This document shows positions 1 to 56,143 of a DNA stretch of 64,000 nucleotides, in pieces; position 1 is the stretch's first letter, and every line of letters begins with the position of its first letter. Both the position numbers and the translations under genes were made by a program. This stretch comes from Oligoflexales bacterium (lineage in GTDB: Bacteria; Bdellovibrionota_B; Oligoflexia; Oligoflexales; Bog-1112), in contig JBGCEP010000027.1 in NCBI GenBank assembly GCA_045106415.1, forward strand, positions 64,001-128,000, read 5' to 3'. The notes below the pieces were generated by a model that did not search any database, had not been told where the DNA came from, and worked only from the letters and a program-made list of their open reading frames with translations.

Positions 1-1356
1 GCTCTGATTTATAATGTCAGACAATAGTATTTGAGAATGAAAATTCTGAATACAAATTTTTTCTATATCGATAGCATCATTAGGATCATGATTTTCATGA
101 CATAATACAAAAAGATCTTGCTTACTCTGATCTATGTTTTTTAATTCCGTACACCTTGTCTTTAAGCCTAAAGACTGAAGTTGTTTTTCCATAATACTTA
201 ACGCTGAATCTTTCATTCTATATTTCACCTGAATAGAGTCAATATCAAATGAATCCTCAAAATCTTCAAATAAAAAACTAGGTTGAACTGTAAACCAGAA
301 AAGAGAACCTTTTCCTCGACGAGAGCTCATTCCACATTTCCCACCTAAAAGTTCTGCTGTTTTTTTACATCTAATCAAACCCAGACCTGTTCCTCGAAAA
401 GATTCTTTATCATGCTTTATTTGTGAGAATGGATGGAAAAGTTTTTTCTGATTTTCACTAGAAATCCCACACCCGGTATCTTCAACCCCTATATAAAGTT
501 GCTTTGCTTGATTCATATTGACTTCAACCGTAATAAAACCTGATTCTGTGAACTTAGATGCATTACACAATAAATGATGAATATTTTGCTGTACTTTATT
601 ACGATCTATCATCACTGTTTTAGGTACTTTTTTATTCACAATATCTGCACATATAATTTTAGAATCTATGGTTCTAGAAAAATTCATAACCACATTTCTA
701 ATAAAATCTCGAATCAAAACTTGTTCTTCATTCACTTTCACTTCATTTGATTCAATTCTAGAGATTTCAGAAATATTATTCATAATATGTAAAATTCTTT
801 CTGCACCTCCTTGAATCGTTGCTAGCATTTTCCTCTGCTCACAATTTTCAACTCTATCCTCTAATAAACTTGACATACCCGTAATTGCATTTAACGGTGT
901 TCTAATTTCATGACTAAATTGAGCTAAAAACTCGCTCCTTTTTTTCTCTGATGCTTTAATTTCCTTCAACACAGAAGCTCTTTCTATAGCAAAAGAAATC
1001 ACCTTATTTAAAAAATAACTACTATCTAATTCAGATTTTAAGACAAAATCTTGAGCTCCTTCACGGATAGAAATAACCGATAAATGAGATTTACTTTCAT
1101 CACTTAATACGATTATTGGAATGTTTGAGAACTCTCGAAAAATAAGGTTAAAGCATTCTAAACCTTGATTTTTTTCTGTATCTAAATCGCACAAAATGAC
1201 ATCAATATCTTTATAGTCCAGCATAGTCAAAGCATCTCTAACCTTATCTACTTGATAAAGCCTGAAAAGGTCACATAATAAAGATTGCTCAATATTTTTT
1301 ATACTGCGCGCTTGATCGCTGAGCAATAATACATGAGTGCTTTTCTTATTCGCCAC
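1..1356 (-). CDS. Hybrid sensor histidine kinase (N-terminal receiver + HisKA + HATPase), truncated by the left window edge
   Basis: Not in the ORF track. Manual translation from GTG at 1356 (GAGGGG upstream) gives MANKKSTHVLLLSD...DVILCDLD (receiver), FLAQFSHEIRTPLNAITGM (H-box) and G-box GTGLGL near 380; no stop seen in the segments I translated. Confidence 0.9.
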   Translation of the reverse strand, partial: MANKKSTHVLLLSDQARSIKNIEQSLLCDLFRLYQVDKVRDALTMLDYKDIDVILCDLDTEKNQGLECFNLIFREFSNIPIIVLSDESKSHLSVISIREGAQDFVLKSELDSSYFLNKVISFAIERASVLKEIKASEKKRSEFLAQFSHEIRTPLNAITGMSSLLEDRVENCEQRKMLATIQGGAERILHIMNNISEISRIESNEVKVNEEQVLIRDFIRNVVMNFSRTIDSKIICADIVNKKVPKTVMIDRNKVQQNIHHLLCNASKFTESGFITVEVNMNQAKQLYIGVEDTGCGISSENQKKLFHPFSQIKHDKESFRGTGLGLIRCKKTAELLGGKCGMSSRRGKGSLFWFTVQPSFLFEDFEDSFDIDSIQVKYRMKDSALSIMEKQLQSLGLKTRCTELKNIDQSKQDLFVLCHENHDPNDAIDIEKICIQNFHSQILLSDIINQS

Positions 1357-1366
1357 AACAAACCCC

Positions 1367-1720
1367 TCATCGACGCCATTCAGATTGCAACTGAACCTTT
1401 GTTTCTTTAAATACATTCTGTACGTTAAATTCTATTTTATTAGCTTCTCCACTTTCTGCTCCTTGATTTTCAATATCTGCAAAAATACACTGCAGATCAA
1501 CAGCTCCAATATTTGCGCAAAGACCCTTGAGGCGATGAGCATAATATTGGATTTTTCGTTCATCATTCGCAGAAATAGATTGATATAACTCTTGAAAAAG
1601 AGGGGGGCTTGTATCTAAAAAAATATCAATAACTTCATTTAAAAACGAATTTTCTCCATCGTCTTCATCATTAAGTAAAGATAAATTATTAAGTACATTA
1701 TCATCTAAAACATTTTTCAT
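1367..1720 (-). CDS. Hpt histidine phosphotransfer protein
   Basis: 117 aa helical protein with AHRLKGLCANIGA Hpt signature. Confidence 0.9.
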   Translation of the reverse strand: MKNVLDDNVLNNLSLLNDEDDGENSFLNEVIDIFLDTSPPLFQELYQSISANDERKIQYYAHRLKGLCANIGAVDLQCIFADIENQGAESGEANKIEFNVQNVFKETKVQLQSEWRR

Positions 1721-2424
1721 TATCCAACCCCTTCTTCTATTGACAAATAAAGGCCCTTGTTCCTTTGACTATTTAAGACAACTCGACTTCCAGAATCCGC
1801 AAGAATTCTTCTCAATGAGCTCACTTGCCTATCTAAATTATTATCTGTAACATGGTTAATCCCCCATAACTTTTTTCTCAAAAAATCCCTATCAACAAGC
1901 ATGCCTTTTGCTTGCATTAAAGCTTCCAGTAAATTTACTGACATTGGTGACAGTGGTTGAGATTGAGATTGAGAAAAAATAGTCCGACGAGAAACATCCA
2001 ACGTAATATCAAAGAGCTTCACAAGATTTTTTTTCTTTTTTTCTTCTAGTTCTTTTGCTCTAATTTGAAAACGCGTTCTTATCTCTAAAGGGTTTAAAGG
2101 TTTCTTTAAAAAATCATCAGCCCCAAGGCCCAAAGAGTGACTTAAAATTTCAACATCATCACTAGCCGTCATGACTAAAAGAGGAACATATGGCCACCTC
2201 TTTCTTAAATCTGGTATAACATCATACCCTTTCGTGTTACCTGATAAGTGAACATCAATAAAACATCCGAGTGGTTGTAGCATACTTGATTTTTTACAAA
2301 GACCTTCTAGAGAGGAAAATGGCAATGAAGTCACTTGAGTTGATTTTTGTATAATTTTATAGACAAGTGGATCATCATCTAAAGTTATAGTGTATATTTT
2401 TTCCATCATCTTAGGCCCTAACAC
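1720..2424 (-). CDS. OmpR/PhoB-family response regulator (receiver + winged helix)
   Basis: LDDDP...FIDVHL...GADDFLKKP receiver; C-terminal NLDRQVSSLRR...RNKGLYL winged helix. Confidence 0.9.
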   Translation of the reverse strand: MLGPKMMEKIYTITLDDDPLVYKIIQKSTQVTSLPFSSLEGLCKKSSMLQPLGCFIDVHLSGNTKGYDVIPDLRKRWPYVPLLVMTASDDVEILSHSLGLGADDFLKKPLNPLEIRTRFQIRAKELEEKKKKNLVKLFDITLDVSRRTIFSQSQSQPLSPMSVNLLEALMQAKGMLVDRDFLRKKLWGINHVTDNNLDRQVSSLRRILADSGSRVVLNSQRNKGLYLSIEEGVG

Positions 2425-2425
2425 A

Positions 2426-2878
2426 TCAAGAAATTAAAGGATTTTTCGTTAAGTATTTTGAAAGGTTTCCTTTATAATGAGCTGTGTGTTTTTGAACCTC
2501 CCAAACCACAGCTTGATAACCAATCGACTTAGGAAGAAATTTTCTCACACAACTTGGTAGTGCTCTTTTTTTATCTAAATCTGACTCGCTTACAATAATG
2601 ACAGGGAGCTGAAAATCTAGAGCATCAATATAATCTGCAATTTCAATACCGTTGACACAACTCACACCTAAATTGATATCAATAATAGCCCCATCATATT
2701 TTCCTATAGCTCCTACAGATCCAAGATCTTCTAAAGACTGAAACCAATCAAGACTCAACCCTTCTTGCTTTGCAACTCTGTCAATAATTGTTGAATAAAC
2801 AGGATCATCATCGACTAATAAAATTCTTTTCGGTTTTATCTCACTCGTCACATCTAAGCTCTTATCTTCCATGATCAC
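2426..2878 (-). CDS. Single-domain response regulator
   Basis: ILLVDDD, phosphoacceptor D in IIDINLG, VIIVS, FLPK. Confidence 0.85.
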   Translation of the reverse strand: MIMEDKSLDVTSEIKPKRILLVDDDPVYSTIIDRVAKQEGLSLDWFQSLEDLGSVGAIGKYDGAIIDINLGVSCVNGIEIADYIDALDFQLPVIIVSESDLDKKRALPSCVRKFLPKSIGYQAVVWEVQKHTAHYKGNLSKYLTKNPLIS

Positions 2879-2899
2879 CTCCTAAAAAATCACAGCGAC

Positions 2900-3430
2900 C
2901 TAATGCTGATCTGAAACTTTTTTATCAATTTTTTCATGAATTTTAGATATATCAAAAGCTTCAAAAACCGCCTCCAAAACAGCGTACGGCCCTAGATCTT
3001 TATGTACAAACTCTCTAATCATAGTTGGCCATTGTTTTGTTTCTTTTTGTTCAGATTGACTCACTAAAATGACAGGGATATCGATATTTGATAATGACTC
3101 GAGGTAGTGAGCCATTTCAAACCCCGTTACAGAACCCAAATCATAGTCAATCACAGCAACATCAAAATCTTGATCTTTTGGAAATTCTTCTACTGTTGAA
3201 ATATAAGTTAAAAAAACAGAGTTCTGTGATGCAACTCGCTGCATAATGCGTCCATAAACCGGATCATCATCAACAAGTAAGACATGCGGAGCCTCTTTGA
3301 GACGACAGGCCAAATTAAGCTCTTCACGATCACTACTGGATCGGTCACGATAAAAGCTTAAACTCTTCTCTTCCCTCACAGGCTCTGACCCTGCGCCAAT
3401 AAGACTTGCGTAGAAAGATGAACCTTTCAT
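2900..3430 (-). CDS. Single-domain response regulator with N-terminal extension
   Basis: VLLVDDD, AVIDYDLG, VILVS, FVHK; AGGAGG RBS upstream. Confidence 0.85.
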   Translation of the reverse strand: MKGSSFYASLIGAGSEPVREEKSLSFYRDRSSSDREELNLACRLKEAPHVLLVDDDPVYGRIMQRVASQNSVFLTYISTVEEFPKDQDFDVAVIDYDLGSVTGFEMAHYLESLSNIDIPVILVSQSEQKETKQWPTMIREFVHKDLGPYAVLEAVFEAFDISKIHEKIDKKVSDQH

Positions 3431-8343: not shown

Positions 8344-9345
8344 ATGTATCTAAAAATTAGAATTCATAGGCGAGTTATGCTGAAGTCTCCAGAAACCTCT
8401 ACACACTCAAACAAAATTATTTTTGGTCTTTTTCTTATTTTTAACCACACAGCATCGTTCGTATGCGCTGAAAGCAGCATAAAAAAATCAGAATCCACCC
8501 AATACGAAGAATCCTTTCTTTTTATAAATATCGACAAATCCCAACGCAGTGCAACCATTCAAACTCTTCCTTCTCCTGAAAATCCAAGTCACCAAGCAAC
8601 ACTGCATTCATTTACAGTATCGTTTGGCAAGTCCCAAGGAGACAAACAAAAAGAAGGTGATAATAAGACCCCTGAGGGATTATATTTTGCCCGCCCTCAT
8701 ATTTCAGGAAAAAATCTCCTCCAATCTAAATACGGGCCCCAAGCCATTCCTCTCAACTTTCCAAATCCTATTGATAAATTTCAGAAAAAAACAGGACACG
8801 GAATCTGGTTACACGGAGCTGGTGATGATCGAAGAATGGATAAAATTTTTGTCACAGAAGGGTGTGTCGCTTTCTACAATAAAGACATGATAGAAGTTAG
8901 CCAATTTATCAAACCATACCAGACCCTTGTCAGCATCAGCAAAACAGCCTCCACTGTAAACACCCAAAAAAGCATTGCCGCATTACATCAAAAAACCCTC
9001 TCTTGGCTGCATGCGTGGCGCACCCGAGATCTTGAGTCTTACTTTTCTTTTTATCACCCTGATTTCAATGGAAAAGGAAAAAATCTAAAAAAATACAAAG
9101 TTTACAAGTCTCGTGTTTTCAGATCTTACAAAAAAATAGCATTAAATATTGAAGATTTACATATCATTACACATGAAAAATACGCTATGAGTATTATGAA
9201 CCAAGACTTTCGTGGTGACCAACGCTTTACATCTGAAGGCCGAAAAGTTTTATACTGGCTGAAGACCAATGGAGTATGGCAGATTATCAGAGAGTCTTTT
9301 AATCATCGACGGTTTATACCCACTCGGTTAGAAACGTCGATATAA
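8344..9345 (+). CDS. L,D-transpeptidase-fold carboxypeptidase with C-terminal NTF2-like domain (Csd6/Pgp2/Bd1075 type)
   Basis: GDKQKEGDNKTPEG, GIWLHG...TEGCV catalytic His/Cys; C-terminal W..AW...DLESYFSFY...KVLYW....WQIIRE. Confidence 0.8.
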   Translation: MYLKIRIHRRVMLKSPETSTHSNKIIFGLFLIFNHTASFVCAESSIKKSESTQYEESFLFINIDKSQRSATIQTLPSPENPSHQATLHSFTVSFGKSQGDKQKEGDNKTPEGLYFARPHISGKNLLQSKYGPQAIPLNFPNPIDKFQKKTGHGIWLHGAGDDRRMDKIFVTEGCVAFYNKDMIEVSQFIKPYQTLVSISKTASTVNTQKSIAALHQKTLSWLHAWRTRDLESYFSFYHPDFNGKGKNLKKYKVYKSRVFRSYKKIALNIEDLHIITHEKYAMSIMNQDFRGDQRFTSEGRKVLYWLKTNGVWQIIRESFNHRRFIPTRLETSI

Positions 9346-9386: not shown

Positions 9387-10364
9387 GTGACAGTTCAAAA
9401 AAAGTGGATCAGCCTTATAGTGCTAGGACTCACGTCCTTTGCTTATGGAAAAACTCTCTACCGCCACAACGGCGATAGTGTCACCCTTGAAAGCCTCAAC
9501 CCATCTCTGCAACAAGCTTACTATGAAGCAGAAAAAGCACACTATGACGCTTTAAGTGAAATCGCAGAGCGAGATGCATATGACCGCTACCTCAAAGACC
9601 TCTCTAAAAAGAAAAACAAAACAGTTGAGCAGGTAGAAACAGAACTTTTCGCAGCATCAGCAAGTGATGCTGATGCTAAGGCATGGTTTGATGAAAACAA
9701 ACACCGCCTAGGTGGGCGCGATTTTGATAAAATCAAAGGTGAAATCAAAACTTTTTTATCCTACCGCTTAAAAGAAGACGGTAGACATAAAATCATTGAA
9801 GATTTAAAAGAAAAAAAACAATTCTCAATGGCTTTAACAGCACCACAAAGACCTACTTTTAAAATCACAACAGATGGTTTTCCAAGCCGTGGCCCAGCAA
9901 ACGCAAAGGTCAAAATTGTCGAGTTCGCTGACTACCAGTGCCCACATTGCCAAAGAGCCGCTGAAGCTGTCAAAGACACTCTTAAAAAATTCCCTAAAAA
10001 TGTTAGTATGACTTTCTTGGACTACCCCATCAATCACTCTGGAATTTCTCGCCTTGTCGCTGAAGGTGCTGCATGTGCTCAACCTCAAGGAAAGTTCTGG
10101 GAATACCATGAGGAAGCTTTTGATAGCCAAAAAACCCTCTCAAAAGACTCACCTCTTGAAATTGCAAAAAAAGTGTCATTAGATGAGAAAAAATGGCAGC
10201 AATGCATGGATAGCGGTGAGGGTCGAAAAGTTGTCGAAGCTGGAGAAAAAGAAGCCGAACGCCTAGGCATCAGCGGAACTCCTACCATTTACATTAACGG
10301 TATTAAAATCGCAGGCTATGATCCCAAAGTGCTAGAAGAAGAGATCAGCAAAGCTTTAAAGTAA
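9387..10364 (+). CDS. DsbA/DsbG-like thioredoxin-fold protein with helical N-terminal domain, exported
   Basis: Signal peptide; EFADYQCPHC; GISGTPTIYING cis-Pro loop. Confidence 0.9.
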   Translation: MTVQKKWISLIVLGLTSFAYGKTLYRHNGDSVTLESLNPSLQQAYYEAEKAHYDALSEIAERDAYDRYLKDLSKKKNKTVEQVETELFAASASDADAKAWFDENKHRLGGRDFDKIKGEIKTFLSYRLKEDGRHKIIEDLKEKKQFSMALTAPQRPTFKITTDGFPSRGPANAKVKIVEFADYQCPHCQRAAEAVKDTLKKFPKNVSMTFLDYPINHSGISRLVAEGAACAQPQGKFWEYHEEAFDSQKTLSKDSPLEIAKKVSLDEKKWQQCMDSGEGRKVVEAGEKEAERLGISGTPTIYINGIKIAGYDPKVLEEEISKALK

Positions 10365-10388: not shown

Positions 10389-10421
10389 AGCCTCCGGCCA
10401 CAGCTGCCTGGAGGCTTTTTT
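10389..10421 (+). terminator. Rho-independent terminator
   Basis: AGCCTCCGG...CTGGAGGCT stem followed by a T-run, just after the DsbA stop. Confidence 0.75.
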
Positions 10422-10500: not shown

Positions 10501-12687
10501 ATGAGACTTCGACGTTATAACAGCATAGCTATATGGCTCTTCTTAATTGCTATTTCTTCCAGCCGTTTGTTTGGTGCTGGAACAAAGCAAGAAGATCAGC
10601 AAATTCGACAAGAAAGTATTGCTGAAATCACAAAAACAGTCACACCACTCCTACGAAAGTATTGTAGCGATGCATGCCAACTCATTCGAGTCGATGTTGC
10701 AATCGACCACGCTCTACAAGAATCAAACGAACTTGGATTTGAAGGAGAGCAATCTCCTGAGAGTCTAGCTTATGTTGAGAAGGTTACTGTTTCCATTCAG
10801 GTAGACAGTAGAGTCACAAATTCTAACAGAGAAAGACTCGGAAAAATTCTCAATCATCACATAGAAAGCACAGGCCTACCAGCTGAAGTCAGCTGGGTTC
10901 AAATCGAACTTCCGCAAATTGGAGAATCTGCCGAGCTTGCTCAGAAACTCATCAATAAACTCCGCGCTCGAATCTCACGCTCAGTAGAAAACGTCATACA
11001 AAGCTACTGCCCTGAACAGTGCCTCTTATCAAATGTTGATGTTGATGGCCACCTTATTTCGCCAGACGAGGCCTCTGGCTTGAACCCCAGGGAAGTGATT
11101 CGCTCATCCTCAGGAAGAGGGTTTCTAAAAATTGACAGATCCAATGTTCTTATTACTATGGATAGGACACTCGGTGGAGCTGGGCGAGAACGGATTTTAA
11201 ACCTCATACAAGCTCGGACTCGATTTGTAAGCAATCTAGAAGTTGATACAAACATAACAGACTTTCCAGAGTCTCACACTGCTCGTCAAGAACGTATCAA
11301 CTCAGAAGCTGATGACCCTTATGGGCTGGAAAAACTTCGACGAGTTCTTACTTTATTCAGAGACCTTGCGGGCACGCGAGAAATTATTTCTTCTGCTAGC
11401 CATGAAAGTGAAACTGAATCCTGGATGGCTTGGCTGGGACTTCTCAGCGCAATAGCCTTAATTGGCGGCATTACCTACCAGCTCAACAATGCGAAACGTG
11501 ACGCTGCTGCGCTACTTGCTGAACCACAGACTGGGAAAAGCGAAACAGAAAACTCAGAAGTCGGTGATGAAATCCGCAAAGAGCTCAACCTAAGAATAAG
11601 AAACCAAGAAGTTCGAAAAGAACTCATAGATCTTTTCACCGAAGCCCCACGAGTTGCAAAAGAAACTTTTTCAAGGCTTCTGCAAGAAGATGGGGTGGAA
11701 GAGACTGCAAAATATGTCCACATCTTTGGAAAAATGGTCATTATGGACCTCTTGAACGATCCGAACCTACAAAGAGATCTTTATGAATTAACCGAGTATT
11801 ATCACAAATCCGATTTCGTTTTTACACTTGAAGAAGAGTGGAAGCTCTTGTCCTCGTTAAAAACACGAGTCACAGCTAGTGAAATACGTGTTCTCGCAAA
11901 AAACACAATGGATCAATTTGAATTTTTAAATCGATTAGATGCAAGTCAAATTTACAACCTTGTCGCGGATGAAAAACCGCAAGTCCAAGGTATCGTACTC
12001 ACACAAGTCGACCATAAACAACGCCGAACCGTATTCGACATGTTTAAAGGTGATGAAAAAGTTGCTCTTATGAAAGAGCTCTGTCGAGCAGATGCGATCC
12101 CTAAAGAATACCTTCAGAATGTCGCAAAAGCTCTTGGCCGAAAAGTCTTATCCAAACCAGAATTCGACACACAAAACTTAAGATCGAGTGACGTCTTACT
12201 AGATCTACTTGAAAAAGCATCTTTAAAAGAACAACGAGCCCTGATGACCAATCTCACTGAAACAAATCCTGATGCCGCACGAGCGATCAAATTAAAACTT
12301 GTTACCATCGAGATGTTACCTTTCTTAAAAGATGGACATCTCCTTGAGGTCATTATGGGCCTTGAACGTGAAGATCTCTTAACCTTCCTCAAAGGCGCAG
12401 ATGAGCACATTCTGGAGCTTCTTCTCTCACACGTACCGCAAGAACTTGCTGACAGCTGGCTAGAAGACTTAGAAAGCATTGCTTCTGTCGACGACAGTAA
12501 ATACCGCCTCGTCGAAATGATGGTCCTTGGGCGAGTCAGAAACCTCGCATCAAATGGCGCATTTAACTTGCTTGATATTAATGAGATGCTGTTCGCCGAA
12601 GCAAATGATAATTCAAATCAAGGCCCTTCACAACAGGGCCCTGATGATATGAATCTCGGCTTGAGTCCTATGAACCTTATTGCCTAA
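10501..12687 (+). CDS. FliF-like (2x RBM3-like, TM, FliF-C) fused to complete FliG-like domains
   Basis: N-terminal signal/TM; two periplasmic repeats (LLRKYCSDAC...VEKVTVSIQVD; VIQSYCPEQC...IDRSNVLITMD); TM WMAWLGLLSAIALIGG; FliG-M FEFL...DEKPQ; FliG-C LKGA...LEDL...VRNLASNG. Confidence 0.75.
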   Translation: MRLRRYNSIAIWLFLIAISSSRLFGAGTKQEDQQIRQESIAEITKTVTPLLRKYCSDACQLIRVDVAIDHALQESNELGFEGEQSPESLAYVEKVTVSIQVDSRVTNSNRERLGKILNHHIESTGLPAEVSWVQIELPQIGESAELAQKLINKLRARISRSVENVIQSYCPEQCLLSNVDVDGHLISPDEASGLNPREVIRSSSGRGFLKIDRSNVLITMDRTLGGAGRERILNLIQARTRFVSNLEVDTNITDFPESHTARQERINSEADDPYGLEKLRRVLTLFRDLAGTREIISSASHESETESWMAWLGLLSAIALIGGITYQLNNAKRDAAALLAEPQTGKSETENSEVGDEIRKELNLRIRNQEVRKELIDLFTEAPRVAKETFSRLLQEDGVEETAKYVHIFGKMVIMDLLNDPNLQRDLYELTEYYHKSDFVFTLEEEWKLLSSLKTRVTASEIRVLAKNTMDQFEFLNRLDASQIYNLVADEKPQVQGIVLTQVDHKQRRTVFDMFKGDEKVALMKELCRADAIPKEYLQNVAKALGRKVLSKPEFDTQNLRSSDVLLDLLEKASLKEQRALMTNLTETNPDAARAIKLKLVTIEMLPFLKDGHLLEVIMGLEREDLLTFLKGADEHILELLLSHVPQELADSWLEDLESIASVDDSKYRLVEMMVLGRVRNLASNGAFNLLDINEMLFAEANDNSNQGPSQQGPDDMNLGLSPMNLIA

Positions 12688-16871: not shown

Positions 16872-18275
16872 TTAAAAACTATGAGTCGCAGAAAAAGCAA
16901 ATGTTGAAGAAACAGCTTCAATATCTTGAATCACTGAATCTCCAAGTTTCTGTGCCTTTCCGCTTCCTTGTTGGAACACTACACCAGCACCAATTTGACT
17001 ATTCGGTTGCACCCACGATGCAAAAAGAGAGGCACCGCTATAATCAACATGATCATTTTGACCTGCATATTGCTCACTCACTTCCGGTCTCGCATCATTA
17101 TTTGTAAAGATACCGACTCGTACCGGAACCGCTGGCACCACATAGTACTCCATACCTGCCGCTGCATTCAAGACCTGATTTCGTTCGTAGTAATAACGAT
17201 CCTTAGCAGCACCCCCATCTTGAACAGCAGCAAAGACTCCTTCTTTCTCTCCTTTAGACGCTGTTGTGAGAATAACATCTGTCGTCACAAGCAACCTTGT
17301 GGAACCAAACCATGCCACACCAGCTCTTAATTCATCTGGATATTTCGACCCTAAAGGATTGCTAGACTCTGATTCAATAAGGGTTCTTTGAATACCAGCT
17401 GTACTCTTCGTAGGTATCATTCCACCATTTGCTTCTTCAACAGACGTATTATCAGCGGAAACTAGCTGGAGATTAAGGCCCTCTGTCGCCACATCATACA
17501 GTTGACTGACATAGGCTCCTCCGATTTTTGCAGTCAAACCGAGGGCAACATCTCCAAAAACATACTGAGCACCAAAAACAGGTTGGATTGCCATAGCACT
17601 TAAGGATTCTCGTACATTCAAAGCGCGACGCGTGTAATTATTTGTACATGATTCTGACTGGCTCACATCCTGATAAACCTGTGTCAACTCATCAATCCCA
17701 TAATAGTTCAACCCAAAACCTAAAGAGAAATTATTCGAAATTCTATAACCAGCTCCAGCCGCATACAATGAGGTTGTCGCTTTTTGGTTCACAACTCGAT
17801 GATACCGGTGAAGAAGGTTTGAACCACTTGTACCATCATCACAGGTTCTTGAGCTCAACACCTGAGCCTCATTCTCTTTAATCAGATCGTTCTGCTCTTT
17901 TTGCTCCCCATCAAGAGTCATAATCCCAAAAGCAAACACAAGACCTTTTTCAATATGATCCAACTTATTCAACCCTCCAAAGAAAGACGGCAGGCTCCCT
18001 CCGCTTTCTTCGACAAAGTCTTTACCTGCAATTGTGCCCTTATATGTGACTGTTCTGCTGTAGAGTGCGTTAGCAGAACCTGAAATATCGTTTGAAAGTG
18101 CAAAAGCCAAGCCTGCTGGGTTATAAAAAACACCAGAGGCATCATCAGAAACACCAACAAACGCGCCTCCTAGGCCAATCGCTCTATCTCCAATCAAAAC
18201 ATTTGAATAGTGGTATTGATCAGCCAGGGCCTGAACAGGAACACTCAATAACAGCATCAATAAAACATGGTGCAT
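16872..18275 (-). CDS. FadL/OmpP1-like outer-membrane beta-barrel
   Basis: Signal peptide, GDRAIGLGGAFVG..DDASGVFYNPAGL, C-terminal Phe. Confidence 0.8.
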   Translation of the reverse strand: MHHVLLMLLLSVPVQALADQYHYSNVLIGDRAIGLGGAFVGVSDDASGVFYNPAGLAFALSNDISGSANALYSRTVTYKGTIAGKDFVEESGGSLPSFFGGLNKLDHIEKGLVFAFGIMTLDGEQKEQNDLIKENEAQVLSSRTCDDGTSGSNLLHRYHRVVNQKATTSLYAAGAGYRISNNFSLGFGLNYYGIDELTQVYQDVSQSESCTNNYTRRALNVRESLSAMAIQPVFGAQYVFGDVALGLTAKIGGAYVSQLYDVATEGLNLQLVSADNTSVEEANGGMIPTKSTAGIQRTLIESESSNPLGSKYPDELRAGVAWFGSTRLLVTTDVILTTASKGEKEGVFAAVQDGGAAKDRYYYERNQVLNAAAGMEYYVVPAVPVRVGIFTNNDARPEVSEQYAGQNDHVDYSGASLFASWVQPNSQIGAGVVFQQGSGKAQKLGDSVIQDIEAVSSTFAFSATHSF

Positions 18276-43458: not shown

Positions 43459-45174
43459 TTAAGAGTTCAGAAGATTTTGAATATCAGAAATAGTGTCTCC
43501 AATTGAAACCATTTCTTGCTCTAATGATTTACACATCACATCTAAACCATTTGCTTGCTCAGATCCAACCCCTACATCTTTTTGGATACTGCTCACAGCA
43601 TGGTTTACTTCTGTAATACCTCGTGATTGCTCTTCGGTACTTATTGAAATATCTTTTGATTGCTGCAAAAGGATTTCAGCAGACCCTAACACATCACTAA
43701 ATAAAGCCGACGTACGAGAAGCTCTTTGTTGCCCATTCGATACTTTTTCTGCTGTGTTTTTCCTCACTTGCTCAGCAAGTTTAAGGCTCCCTCCGACAAT
43801 GTTAGATATCTCCAGAGCTGCAACACCGCTCATTTGAGCGAGGCTATTGACTTCTTGCGCAACAACTGCAAATCCTCTTCCGTGTTCACCCGCTCTTTCA
43901 GCTTCAACAGAGGCGTTAAAGGACAGAAGTTTTGTTTGAAACACAATATCATCAATAACTTTTGTCTTATCACCGATCTGCCCTATAACATCGGCAAGTT
44001 GTTCAATTTCATCATTTCCTCGCGCGATATCTTCAATTGTCTTTAAAAGCTCTTGCATAGCAGCATCTGAATTCTGCGCCGTAAGCCGCACTTCTTCTGA
44101 TACAGATGTCGATTTTTGTGCTTGAGATGCATTTGATTGAACAGTGCTTTCAACCTCTTGTATAGCAGACGCAGTCTGATTGAGAGCTGAAACTTGATTT
44201 TGAGCAACATTCACAAGATTTCGACTTCTACCGCTTACTTCTGAAGCAATATGATTCAGTTGGGTATAATTTATACTAAGTGCTTTTTCTACTTTTCTTA
44301 GCTTATGGCTAATGACACTTAAAATAATGGATGAATTTAAAATCAAAACAATGACCCCAAATACATTTAAAACCAGAACTAAAAACTCAGACTTTTTCTC
44401 CAGATGAAAGGCCTCCACCCCAGCCATCAACGTGAAGTCTTCAATATCAAGAAGAAGAGACTCAACAACATGATTTAAATGGTCCTCCTCACCCTCTAAA
44501 ACCTCAATTTCATTCAATGTGGGTTCTTGACCTTGATTCAACCTTTCAAAAAGCTGGGAAATATGTGAATCAAATTCATAATGCTCATTTTTTATCGCTT
44601 GAATGCTTTTTTCAACTTCCTGAAATTTCTCTAAACTCTTAGGATAAGCAGCCACCTCTACTCCATGGTGAGCAATCTTAAAAGCTCGATCAAGCGCCAG
44701 CTCCACCTTTTTCGCATAATAAACCACCTTTTCTTCAGCATGATATAATTTTTCACCGCTCTTTTTCAAAGAAAAGAGCATCGCTCTTTCAAACCAAGTG
44801 CTTTGATGCATCTGAGCCACTTCCACTTGTGATATCGCTTTTGTTAAAGCGATATCTTCTTTCACAATTTCTTCAATTTTAACTCCAAGCTTTTTCATGT
44901 AAAGCTCTGTGATAACACCAACAATTGATGATGTTATAATTGTACCCACCACCAACACCATCAAATTAAATTTAAGAGATTTACGACTCAAAATCCTTGA
45001 TATATATTTGCGACACAAAAAAATTAGGATCATGAACGCCGACAGGCCAACCACAAGAGGTATGTTTTCTGTAAAGAGACGATAAAAACCAAATTCTAAT
45101 TTTTGGACCTCTTCAAGGTTCATACTTACTAGCTTCTGCTCCTGCCCATTAACAGCTGCCACCCTGACTCCCAC
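43459..45174 (-). CDS. Methyl-accepting chemotaxis protein
   Basis: TM segments; [30 protein letters not shown] signalling domain. Confidence 0.95.
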
Positions 45175-54684: not shown

Positions 54685-55779
54685 ATGACCACCCGAGTAA
54701 CATTACTAAAAAAGCCAAAACTTCTTTATCAAGCTTTCTTCATCACCTTTATGATAGGCCTCGTTTTAGGGGGTTGGTTTTTCTACTCCCACAAAAGCAT
54801 GACACTCAACACCCCACAAGACATTACTCTAAGCCCGGGTCAATCCGTTCGTCACTTTGCTCAGCAATTAGAATCTCAAGGAGTCATACACTCGGCATTT
54901 ACGTTTGAATTAACAGCTAGGAGCTTAGGAATAAGCGGCTCTTTTCAAGCAGGGACTTATCGTTTCACTGGTGACATTTCCTCTCTAGATATTATGCACG
55001 CTGTCCAAAAAGGCAAAACTTATAACCCTCTTACCTTAAAAATCACATTTCCAGAAGGCAGCAATCTCAAAGAGGTTTCAACCATTTTATGGCGACATCG
55101 TTTGATCTCTAAAAACTCTCTTTGGAAAGGATTTAAAGACACTCGATGGCTTCGCTCTCTTAACATTCATACTCGAACGCCTGAAGGATACATATACCCT
55201 TCAACATACATGTTTTATGGAAAAAAACCATCAGCAAAAGCCGTTATTAAACGTGCTGTCCAAGAGTTTTTCAACACTCTTCCTAAAAATTATGAAGAGC
55301 AAGTTCAAGCAAACGGTCTCTCTCTACACGATGCTATTACGTTCGCATCTCTCATTGAAAAAGAAACCGCCCTCACCAAAGAAATGCCTTTGGTTTCTGA
55401 GGTCATTTGGGCGCGATTAAAAAACAAAGAAGCTCTTGGTATTGACGCAGCTTTGATTTACGGCATCAAAAACTACAAGGGCAACATTACCTGGAAACAT
55501 CTACGTGACCGTAAAAATCCATACAACACAAGAATACACAAAGGCCTACCTCCAACACCTATTGCGTCACCGTCGATTCAAGCACTTGGTGCTGTGTTAA
55601 CTCCAAGCGCAAAAGGTTATTACTTCTACGTTCTCAAACCCAACAGTAAAGAGCATCATTTTTCAAAAACCGCAAAAGAACATCAAAAACATGTCCGCTA
55701 CCTTGTTCAAGCAAGCCGCCAACAAAAAGGGAAACAGCATGCCAAAGAAAAAAGCAAAAACAAAGACTCAAAACACTGA
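54685..55779 (+). CDS. mltG: Endolytic transglycosylase MltG
   Basis: N-terminal TM, TFPEG, EGYIYPSTY, ASLIEKET, PYNT...GLPPTPI. Confidence 0.95.
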   Translation: MTTRVTLLKKPKLLYQAFFITFMIGLVLGGWFFYSHKSMTLNTPQDITLSPGQSVRHFAQQLESQGVIHSAFTFELTARSLGISGSFQAGTYRFTGDISSLDIMHAVQKGKTYNPLTLKITFPEGSNLKEVSTILWRHRLISKNSLWKGFKDTRWLRSLNIHTRTPEGYIYPSTYMFYGKKPSAKAVIKRAVQEFFNTLPKNYEEQVQANGLSLHDAITFASLIEKETALTKEMPLVSEVIWARLKNKEALGIDAALIYGIKNYKGNITWKHLRDRKNPYNTRIHKGLPPTPIASPSIQALGAVLTPSAKGYYFYVLKPNSKEHHFSKTAKEHQKHVRYLVQASRQQKGKQHAKEKSKNKDSKH

Positions 55780-56143
55780 GTCCGGAGCAGTCCGCCGTAC
55801 AGGAGAACGTATTCCAGTACAGCTTCTCGTCGACTACCGTTCTGATGGCCACTATTTATTTGATTTTTGCAAAGATCTCGGTGAAGGCGGTGTTTTTATT
55901 CAAACTAAAAAACCAAAGCCTCAAGGCACTATCTTGAACCTCACATTCACACTTCCTGACAGCAGTGAGACACTTCAAACCTGTGGGACTGTCATATGGG
56001 CACAAGAACCCATAGAAGGCCGAGTCGACCTCACCCCAGGCATGGGTATTCAGTTTGACTCTTTTTCTACTGAGAATCGTCGAATTCTTGAAAAATTCGT
56101 TGATCGTTATAGCCAAGACGAAAAAACAGGCTCTTCAAACTAA
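55739..56143 (+). CDS. PilZ-domain protein (TIGR02266-like)
   Basis: RRTGERIP RxxxR, DLGEGGVFI, PGMGIQF. Confidence 0.85.
   Translation: MPKKKAKTKTQNTESGAVRRTGERIPVQLLVDYRSDGHYLFDFCKDLGEGGVFIQTKKPKPQGTILNLTFTLPDSSETLQTCGTVIWAQEPIEGRVDLTPGMGIQFDSFSTENRRILEKFVDRYSQDEKTGSSN

Follow-up and report, generated by a model that had tools for sequence, protein, structure and literature searches.

A natural single-chain FliF-like/FliG fusion in Oligoflexales, co-inherited with a MotAB-type stator paralog: possible rotor subunit of a second, flagellar-motor-derived envelope machine

What does a membrane protein that ends in a FliG do in a genome that also carries ordinary flagellar genes? The question is raised by a 64,000-nt stretch of DNA (referred to here as the window) from an Oligoflexales bacterium (assembly GCA_045106415.1, contig JBGCEP010000027.1, positions 64,001–128,000, forward strand; source genome 2.95 Mb, 93.8% complete). 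From the open reading frame (ORF) list and its translation, one gene of the window (P0001; 10,501–12,687, +) encodes a 728-aa single-chain FliF-like/FliG fusion, called the fusion below; all of its parts are given in window coordinates on the + strand. An initial annotation, made from the letters of the window, described an orphan and possibly non-flagellar rotor. The analysis presented here gives an even chance to the fusion being the rotor subunit of a second, flagellar-motor-derived, ion-driven envelope machine, separate from the ordinary basal body.

The gene starts with ATG at 10,501, with AAAGG 7–8 nt 5′ of the start, and its parts follow the order signal/transmembrane (TM) helix, two periplasmic domains, TM helix, two helices and FliG N-M-C, an architecture that the initial annotation had recognised and that was borne out by structure models, repeat comparison and Pfam matches. 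The fusion was folded as two halves with AlphaFold2, using an alignment of 59 family members. The C-terminal half gave an all-helical model (predicted local distance difference test score, pLDDT, 85.4), for which all 13 Foldseek matches at E≤0.001 were FliG. Residues 396–696 (model 71–371) align with Salmonella FliG 4–327 (8umd_B; Z 14.4, 291 aligned), the best non-FliG chain having Z 4.7. By this alignment the model covers all three FliG domains, in keeping with the earlier placement of FliG-N from GVEETAKYV onwards. The FliG-N-like domain (residues 396–470; 11,686–11,910) is shortened, being ~23 residues shorter than canonical FliG-N in the model alignment, and the fusion has no Pfam match to the FliG N-terminal domain (PF14842) at E≤1. 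The FliG middle domain (residues 482–551; 11,944–12,153) matches PF14841 (E 5.7e-10; 39.7 bits, cut-off 25) and 4fq0_C (Z 13.6, root-mean-square deviation, rmsd, 1.4). The FliG C-terminal domain (residues 584–690; 12,250–12,570) matches PF01706 (E 3.5e-12; 47 bits, cut-off 23.3), 1qc7_B (Z 13.8, rmsd 1.8) and the FliG of the MotAB-FliG complex 8ucs_H (Z 12.6). The nearest solved sequences to the fusion are FliG proteins (3hjl, E 2.7e-11); against the fliG equivalog TIGR00207 it scores 67.4 bits, under the cut-off of 226.7.

Several FliG motifs are altered in the family. EKPQ replaces EHPQ in FliG-M, as had been noticed from the start, and the FliM-binding EHPQR motif is lost (E125 in 22/22 fusions, H126 in 0/22, Q128 in 8/22). 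The R160 equivalent is basic in 1/22 fusions, LRSSD replaces the Gly-Gly stretch and LVTIEML replaces MFVF (the MFxF motif). EHPQR, the Gly-Gly hinge and MFxF have roles in FliM binding and switching.

The N-terminal half was modelled with a mean pLDDT of 88.2. Residues 1–25 (10,501–10,575) are predicted, from a hydrophobic helix at 3–25 in the model, to be a signal peptide or else a first membrane anchor; they lack a lipobox Cys. Two periplasmic domains follow, domain 1 at residues 29–135 (10,585–10,905; alpha-beta-beta-alpha-beta, resembling a ring-building motif, RBM) and the RBM3-like domain 2 at residues 142–253 (10,924–11,259), both with the order helix-strand-loop-strand-helix-strand in the model. 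Profiles of the two align with E 1.1e-17 over 109 columns (hhalign; reversed control, E 0.044 over 5 columns), so that, by profile comparison, domain 2 is a homologous repeat of domain 1. Each carries its own CxxxC pair, as proposed earlier: C55/C59 (10,663–10,677), at the end of helix 1 and start of strand 1, and C170/C174 (11,008–11,022), at a helix-strand junction, both invariant in 32/32 aligned members. The most conserved periplasmic motif, DPYGLEKLR..L..FRDLAGT[KR]EII (11,314–11,388), is carried by two short helices (259–271 and 276–291 in the model) preceding a variable, disordered Ser/Glu-rich linker; D272, P273, G275, L276, L283, F286, T292 and E294 in this region are invariant among 60 sequences. 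The second TM helix (residues 308–328; 11,422–11,484) is a hydrophobic stretch within model helix 308–339.

By structure, the best matches of this half are to FliF, level with a generic fold on domain 1. The top 11 Foldseek matches of the N-terminal model are all FliF membrane-supramembrane (MS) ring chains (E 6.6e-8 to 2.5e-4); their TM-scores are low, as the domains are arranged differently. A structure search independent of Foldseek, over 48,161 representative chains, placed FliF first and second (Z 11.1 and 10.2). Domain 1 matches FliF RBM3 (8z4d_1) with Z 9.8 and domain 2 matches FliF RBM3 (8z5v_A) with Z 11.1 (rmsd 2.2, 98 aligned). When the two domains are aligned together, the match to domain 1 is FliF RBM2 and that to domain 2 is RBM3, which leaves the earlier statement that RBM1 and RBM2 are absent half right. 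Other RBM proteins score below FliF (PrgK Z 8.1–8.3, SpoIIIAF 8.1, EscJ 7.7, SpoIIIAG 7.0). The topology is also that of FliF: a TM helix, periplasmic RBM-like domains, a second TM helix and a cytoplasmic tail running straight into FliG-N. That tail consists of two helices (residues 352–395; 11,554–11,685; pLDDT 90–95) with the motif P[KR]VAKETF.R.L.E in 32/32 members. The motif resembles, by eye only, EPKRTTEAIR.LL of the FliF C-terminus and lies exactly where a fliF-fliG gene fusion would place it; derivation of residues 352–395 from the FliF C-terminus is a lead rather than a result. Prediction of an oligomer from three copies of residues 28–295 gave a median score of 0.33 against a mark of 0.42, with controls at 0.00–0.04, and so weighs on neither side of the question of a ring.

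Whether the fusion is simply this genome's FliF and FliG is answered by the ordinary flagellar genes found elsewhere. Canonical FliF (537 aa) is encoded in a flgC-fliE-fliF-fliH-fliI cluster (G000:C30:56000–60000; L049:2409–11418), which has no fliG between fliF and fliH, and canonical fliG (331 aa; L048:8909–9904) stands alone between genes for a tRNA methyltransferase and fructose-bisphosphate aldolase. Some 18 kb beyond the end of the window, between an SNF2 helicase gene and an uncharacterised one, lies another FliG paralog, soluble and of 336 aa (G000:C27:146228–147238; L047:9228–10238). Its FliG_N, M and C matches are all over cut-off and weaker than those of canonical FliG, and it is present in most genomes of the class, including those that lack the fusion. 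The genome thus has three FliG_C genes, counting the fusion, plus one FliM, eight flagellin-type and eight MotA/ExbB-family genes, four of the latter being of MotA/PomA type. A scan of 52 ORFs of the window brought up no further flagellar structural gene, in line with the initial annotation. As canonical fliF and fliG, which that annotation had suggested looking for, are both present, the fusion is not the genome's ordinary FliF/FliG.

Such a gene might still arise from an assembly or gene-calling error that joined the ordinary FliF and FliG, or be a paralog in decay, and some sources do label relatives 'flagellar motor switch protein FliG'. The probability of this is practically negligible. 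The same architecture is found in 153 full-length relatives (400–1274 aa, 40–78% identity) from many assemblies, with source names Oligoflexales, Pseudobacteriovorax, Oligoflexus or Bdellovibrionota; there is one copy per genome, without internal stops, many invariant residues are spread over its whole length, and the canonical pair is encoded elsewhere. The fusion is kept at full length in Oligoflexales and one sister lineage, and 42 loci were found in species-representative genomes. With the N-terminal 340 residues as query, only 104 clusters were matched among 1.84 billion representative proteins, canonical FliF not being among these clusters. Twenty cluster proteins were scanned: FliG_M and FliG_C are present in 13/13 of those of at least 682 aa, and the remaining seven, of no more than 585 aa, look like fragments. 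One carrier, Oligoflexus tunisiensis Shr3 (L021), is cultured, and Pseudobacteriovorax antillogorgiicola is a second likely cultured carrier, judged from a metagenome-assembled genome labelled as that species (L027).

The initial annotation had called the protein a rotor and suggested phylogenetic profiling, and it was this that revealed a dedicated MotA/MotB paralog. Among 131 genomes of the class (a phylum-level search gave 104 genomes at least 85% complete, all of them already in this set), the fusion, queried with its N-terminal half, is present in 78, FliF in 114 and FliG_C, usually in three copies, in 118. One MotA paralog (C4 MotA; G000:C4:94764–95537) occurs in 77/131 and the gene P0334 (G000:C10:16330–17553) in 79/131. 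The fusion and C4 MotA are found together in 74 genomes and neither in 50; four have only the fusion and three only the MotA, and all seven discordant genomes are 53–90% complete. This agreement holds within genera (e.g. in g40 the same 7/14 genomes carry both). P0334 follows the fusion as closely (76 both, two fusion only, three P0334 only, 50 neither). The controls, canonical MotA (113/131) and FliF, both occur in lineages without the fusion. Canonical MotA was rejected as partner, following the flagellum and not the fusion, as was another paralog, C70 MotA, which is found in 43/131 genomes including aflagellate families. The C70 MotA/MotB-like pair itself (G000:C70:9635–11076; L059), which looks like a stator of flagellar type, is kept in all four genomes of one aflagellate family.

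The partner MotAB locus (G000:C4:94764–96240) encodes proteins of flagellar stator type (PF01618 E 2.3e-23, MotB_plug E 3e-12, OmpA E 1e-9), the MotA scoring below the NCBIfam PomA/MotA cut-offs (124.9 vs 341). In family f19, 16/19 genomes with both have MotA on the strand and contig of the fusion, 0.8–1.4 kb upstream of it. In the sister lineage, four loci that were fully read have a single operon in the order thioredoxin-fold gene, unknown gene, P0334-like gene, tetratricopeptide repeat (TPR) lipoprotein gene, motA, motB and fusion. The motB stop and the fusion start overlap by 4 nt, as seen from sequence in three loci and from ORF coordinates in the fourth. No other flagellar gene, and no axial or export gene, was found in the loci read. 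Homologs of the two genes preceding motA also adjoin each other in the source genome (P0334, C10:16330–17553; P0335, C10:17513–18292). The description of the fusion as an orphan, standing alone, has therefore to be given up: its partner genes are at two other loci, and in the sister lineage they share one operon with it. P0334 has a signal peptide and a C-terminal Phe, and in a protein-language-model search was akin to LpoB/CsgG/TolB_N-bearing and outer-membrane-barrel clusters; P0335 carries a lipobox and matches TPR models weakly. The thioredoxin-fold gene heading the operon matches Redoxin (E 2.2e-8) in one of the four loci, with weaker matches in two more. A 225-aa gene preceding P0334 has no homology to the 'fam5' gene of the sister operon. 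Just upstream of P0334/P0335 are genes for an MbnB/TglH/ChrH-type enzyme modifying ribosomally synthesised and post-translationally modified peptides (E 3.2e-78) and a DUF2063 protein (G000:C10:14098–15439; L067:2099–3440).

Changes at the rotor-stator interface are found in both partners. Contact residues were compared by alignment to E. coli FliG and MotA from NC_000913.3 and are given in E. coli numbering. PMC12505986 and PMC7564593 describe, for E. coli, contacts of MotA R90 with FliG D288/D289 and of MotA E98 with FliG R281. In the torque-helix region of the fusion (PQELADSWLEDLESIASVDD; 12,436–12,495) the aligned charge pattern is all-acidic. Position 281 is E or D in 22/22 fusions and R in both ordinary FliGs of the source genome; 288 is acidic in 20/22 fusions and 289 in 17/22, and 297 is basic in 0/22. 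In all five partner MotA sequences R90 is kept and E98 is replaced by V or A, while both residues are kept in the two ordinary MotA/PomA genes of the source genome. The R90-D288/D289 pair thus appears to be kept, and the E98-R281 pair dropped, on both sides. The channel Asp of the partner MotB (D32 equivalent) is D in 8/8 sequences.

These residues also bear on another explanation, in which the fusion is a non-rotating, membrane-anchored docking platform of FliG type for one kind of stator, serving stator storage or regulation or sensing ion-motive force or envelope state, with the periplasmic domains as sensor or anchor. Loss of the switch motifs and of the R281 equivalent, the shortened FliG-N and the lack of linked axial or export genes would suit such a platform. 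However, strong conservation of the FliG-C torque helix, MotA R90 and MotB D32 suggests a working torque interface, and co-inheritance with putative outer-membrane partners fits force transmission better than storage. We consider a docking platform improbable.

For a separate ion-driven machine, the following mechanism can be proposed. Copies of the fusion would assemble via their RBM-like domains into an inner-membrane ring, holding the ring and the FliG torque surface in a fixed 1:1 ratio. The dedicated MotA5B2-type units would be anchored in the cell wall and use ion flow to push FliG-C through the retained R90-D288/D289 type of contact. With EHPQR, the Gly-Gly hinge and MFxF all lost, such a machine would therefore be unable to switch direction or to bind FliM. 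Force would cross the periplasm to the outer-membrane partners, not to a rod and filament, and candidate outputs are surface movement, rotation of the envelope or a sheath, or a role beside the flagellum. Put more broadly, and at somewhat less than an even chance, this might be a new class of rotary machine whose MS ring and FliG rotor are a single protein, with a private MotAB and a barrel and TPR lipoprotein, with no rod, hook, filament, gate or switch, and used for envelope work other than swimming.

Several observations weigh against a machine separate from the flagellum, the first being its distribution. The fusion was found in none of 15 genomes without flagellar FliG, 13 of which have no FliG_C match at all and two (G018 and G044) a weak match and no fusion; an independent machine would be expected in some aflagellates. 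The suggestion in the initial annotation that the protein is possibly non-flagellar is doubtful on these counts. FliF was found in 77/78 carriers of the fusion, and the 78th (G019) has no FliF match but has canonical FliG. In the family to which the window belongs, the fusion is present in 0/5 aflagellate vs 9/11 flagellated genomes, including same-genus contrasts (G007 vs G005/G006/G008; G012 vs G011). The aflagellate genomes are small (1.8–3.2 Mb) and these relatives are not independent, so loss of the fusion together with a motile way of life is no less possible than its physical dependence on the flagellum.

This pattern, in which all 78 carriers have flagellar genes, is what would be expected if the fusion were an accessory to the ordinary flagellar motor, forming an extra ring that surrounds or adjoins the MS ring and brings in additional stators. 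The barrel and TPR lipoprotein partners would then act like the disks or collars of Vibrio, Campylobacter or spirochaetes; accessory rings of flagella commonly contain TPR and outer-membrane proteins, and the partner stator, which has a plug and an OmpA domain, belongs to the flagellar type. Yet whole flagellated genera lack the fusion system (g44, 0/7 genomes; g55, 0/13, of which 12 are flagellated), and the flagellum therefore does not need it. The operon of the sister lineage includes no flagellar gene and the canonical FliF/FliG pair is intact. Further, the fusion has a FliG of its own, in which the stator contact is changed and the FliM-binding motif missing; this fits a separate rotor better than a scaffold. 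An accessory ring seems to us less likely than a separate machine, and is its main rival.

The remaining points against a second rotary machine concern its parts. In the source genome the fusion, MotAB and P0334/P0335 are at three unlinked loci. Position 289 is non-acidic in 5/22 fusions and 288 in 2/22. P0334 is a putative outer-membrane protein, a lead taken from its signal peptide, C-terminal Phe and language-model look-alikes only. Likeness to FliF is structural: no Pfam match to YscJ_FliF (PF01514) or YscJ_FliF_C (PF08345) was found in the fusion, and hhalign of the fusion family against 23 same-clade FliF sequences gave a probability of 0.18. Profiles of the single domains against FliF gave E 0.2 and 0.11, both at FliF 359–406, which is suggestive only. 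C-terminal domains of cation-diffusion facilitator (CDF) metal transporters tie with FliF on domain 1 (Z 9–10), so the alpha-beta-beta-alpha-beta fold alone is generic, and the RBM3 beta-collar is missing, the loops between strands 1 and 2 having just 17–21 residues in the model. The RBM3 pattern read into both repeats by the initial annotation thus stands as far as FliF is their best structural match, and falters on the tie with CDF transporters and on sequence comparison. For its FliF-C-like segment no significant profile match was found: the FliF C-terminus compared with fusion residues 345–475 gave E 0.097, aligned elsewhere, and E 0.89 when limited to residues 350–397, leaving position and a short motif likeness. 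Finally, we infer all of ring assembly, rotation, physical contacts and output.

Upstream of the fusion is a DsbA-like thioredoxin-fold gene (9,387–10,364, +; PF13462 and PF01323), which the initial annotation had named as a possible source of the disulfides. It adjoins the fusion in 26/42 related loci, as part of a block (ParA/MinD-like, DnaJ plus HTH_25, RluD, YkuD/Csd6-like, DsbA-like) that lies beside the fusion in 24–29/42 loci. DsbA-like orthologs are found in 131/131 genomes, with or without the fusion, and a terminator-like hairpin read from the sequence (10,389–10,421, +; 7-bp GC-rich stem, 12-nt loop, T6) separates the two genes. For both reasons the block was treated as conserved housekeeping synteny and not as a functional partner of the fusion, and the idea of DsbA as its own disulfide partner is weakened. 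The four periplasmic Cys of the fusion may well be among the substrates of a general DsbA, which would not make it a dedicated partner. The thioredoxin-fold gene heading the sister operon, for which no significant match to the DsbA of the window was found, suggests that the redox idea should be kept alive. The YkuD L,D-transpeptidase-fold gene of the block (8,344–9,345, +) has a Csd6-type NTF2-like C-terminal domain (E 1.7e-18) and resembles Csd6, the cell-shape L,D-carboxypeptidase of Helicobacter.

A sigma-28-type promoter for the fusion was considered and rejected: CCGATAA is present 35 nt 5′ of the start, but the two-part consensus is absent there. The half-site is found in 10/41 related fusion upstream regions. 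The same consensus is absent within 200 nt upstream of 7/8 flagellin genes of this genome, the eighth having a loose match at -164. Elsewhere in the window, four consecutive receiver-domain genes (1–3,430, −) encode a hybrid histidine kinase, an OmpR-type regulator and two single-domain receivers. Besides the fusion, the only motility-related genes of the window encode a PilZ-domain protein (55,691–56,143, +) and a methyl-accepting chemotaxis protein (43,459–45,174, −). A 467-aa protein without Pfam match (16,872–18,275, −) has an N-terminus with a weak, sub-cut-off match (E 1.3e-8) to the PorV/PorQ family of outer-membrane proteins, which belong to type IX secretion. A 269-aa protein (38,969–39,778, −) matches Zf_WRKY19 over its whole length (E 2.2e-19), with no single stretch passing; this match, odd in a bacterium, probably reflects a Cys-rich repeat.

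To our knowledge the flagellar rotor-stator pair is known solely within the flagellum, and neither a natural FliF-FliG fusion nor this gene set was found described in the published literature searched, which excluded subscription journals. What stands out is that FliF and FliG occur here naturally as one chain, with a stator of its own, a re-tuned charge contact and candidate outer-membrane partners. If it does belong to a separate motor, the torque-generating core of the flagellum would have been reused for another purpose, offering a stripped-down natural model for rotor-stator coupling, a fixed 1:1 FliF:FliG stoichiometry and the origin of the motor. If it instead forms an accessory ring, it would still be a new type of elaboration of the motor, from a phylum that has received little study. 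Cultured carriers make the system testable in either case.

Among known systems, flagellar FliF plus FliG come closest, sharing with the fusion the topology of FliF, a FliG N-M-C fold as seen in the model and a MotAB-type partner; FliF RBM2/RBM3 are the best structural matches of its periplasmic domains. Unlike flagellar FliF, the fusion has neither sequence likeness to it nor a beta-collar, and has two duplicate, CxxxC-bearing periplasmic domains; unlike flagellar FliG, it has a shortened FliG-N, lacks EHPQR, Gly-Gly and MFxF, and has reversed charge at 281. In contrast to the flagellar motor, it has its own stator paralog and no linked export-gate, rod, FliM or FliN genes. According to PMC10941966, FliF-FliG fusions made by engineering assemble into rings; the laboratory fusion of Vibrio (PDB 8z4d/8z4g) is likewise engineered, whereas the fusion described here is natural. 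Ring proteins of type III secretion systems and sporulation (SctJ/PrgK/EscJ, SctD/PrgH, SpoIIIAF/AG) share tandem periplasmic RBM-type domains beside a TM helix, but their structural scores are below those of FliF, and they neither carry a FliG nor work with MotAB. GldLM (gliding and type IX secretion), AglRQS-Glt, ExbBD-TonB and TolQR-Pal resemble the proposed machine in function only, in that an inner-membrane ion motor acts on outer-membrane proteins or lipoproteins. Those 5:2 motors lack a FliG-type rotor, while here a stator of flagellar type (plug, OmpA) is combined with a FliG ring protein. Spirochaetes, with FliG1 and FliG2, share the presence of several FliGs per genome (three FliG_C genes here). 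Extra FliG paralogs such as these are soluble and FliG-sized; the fusion, unlike them, is joined to a membrane ring-like protein with its own stator.

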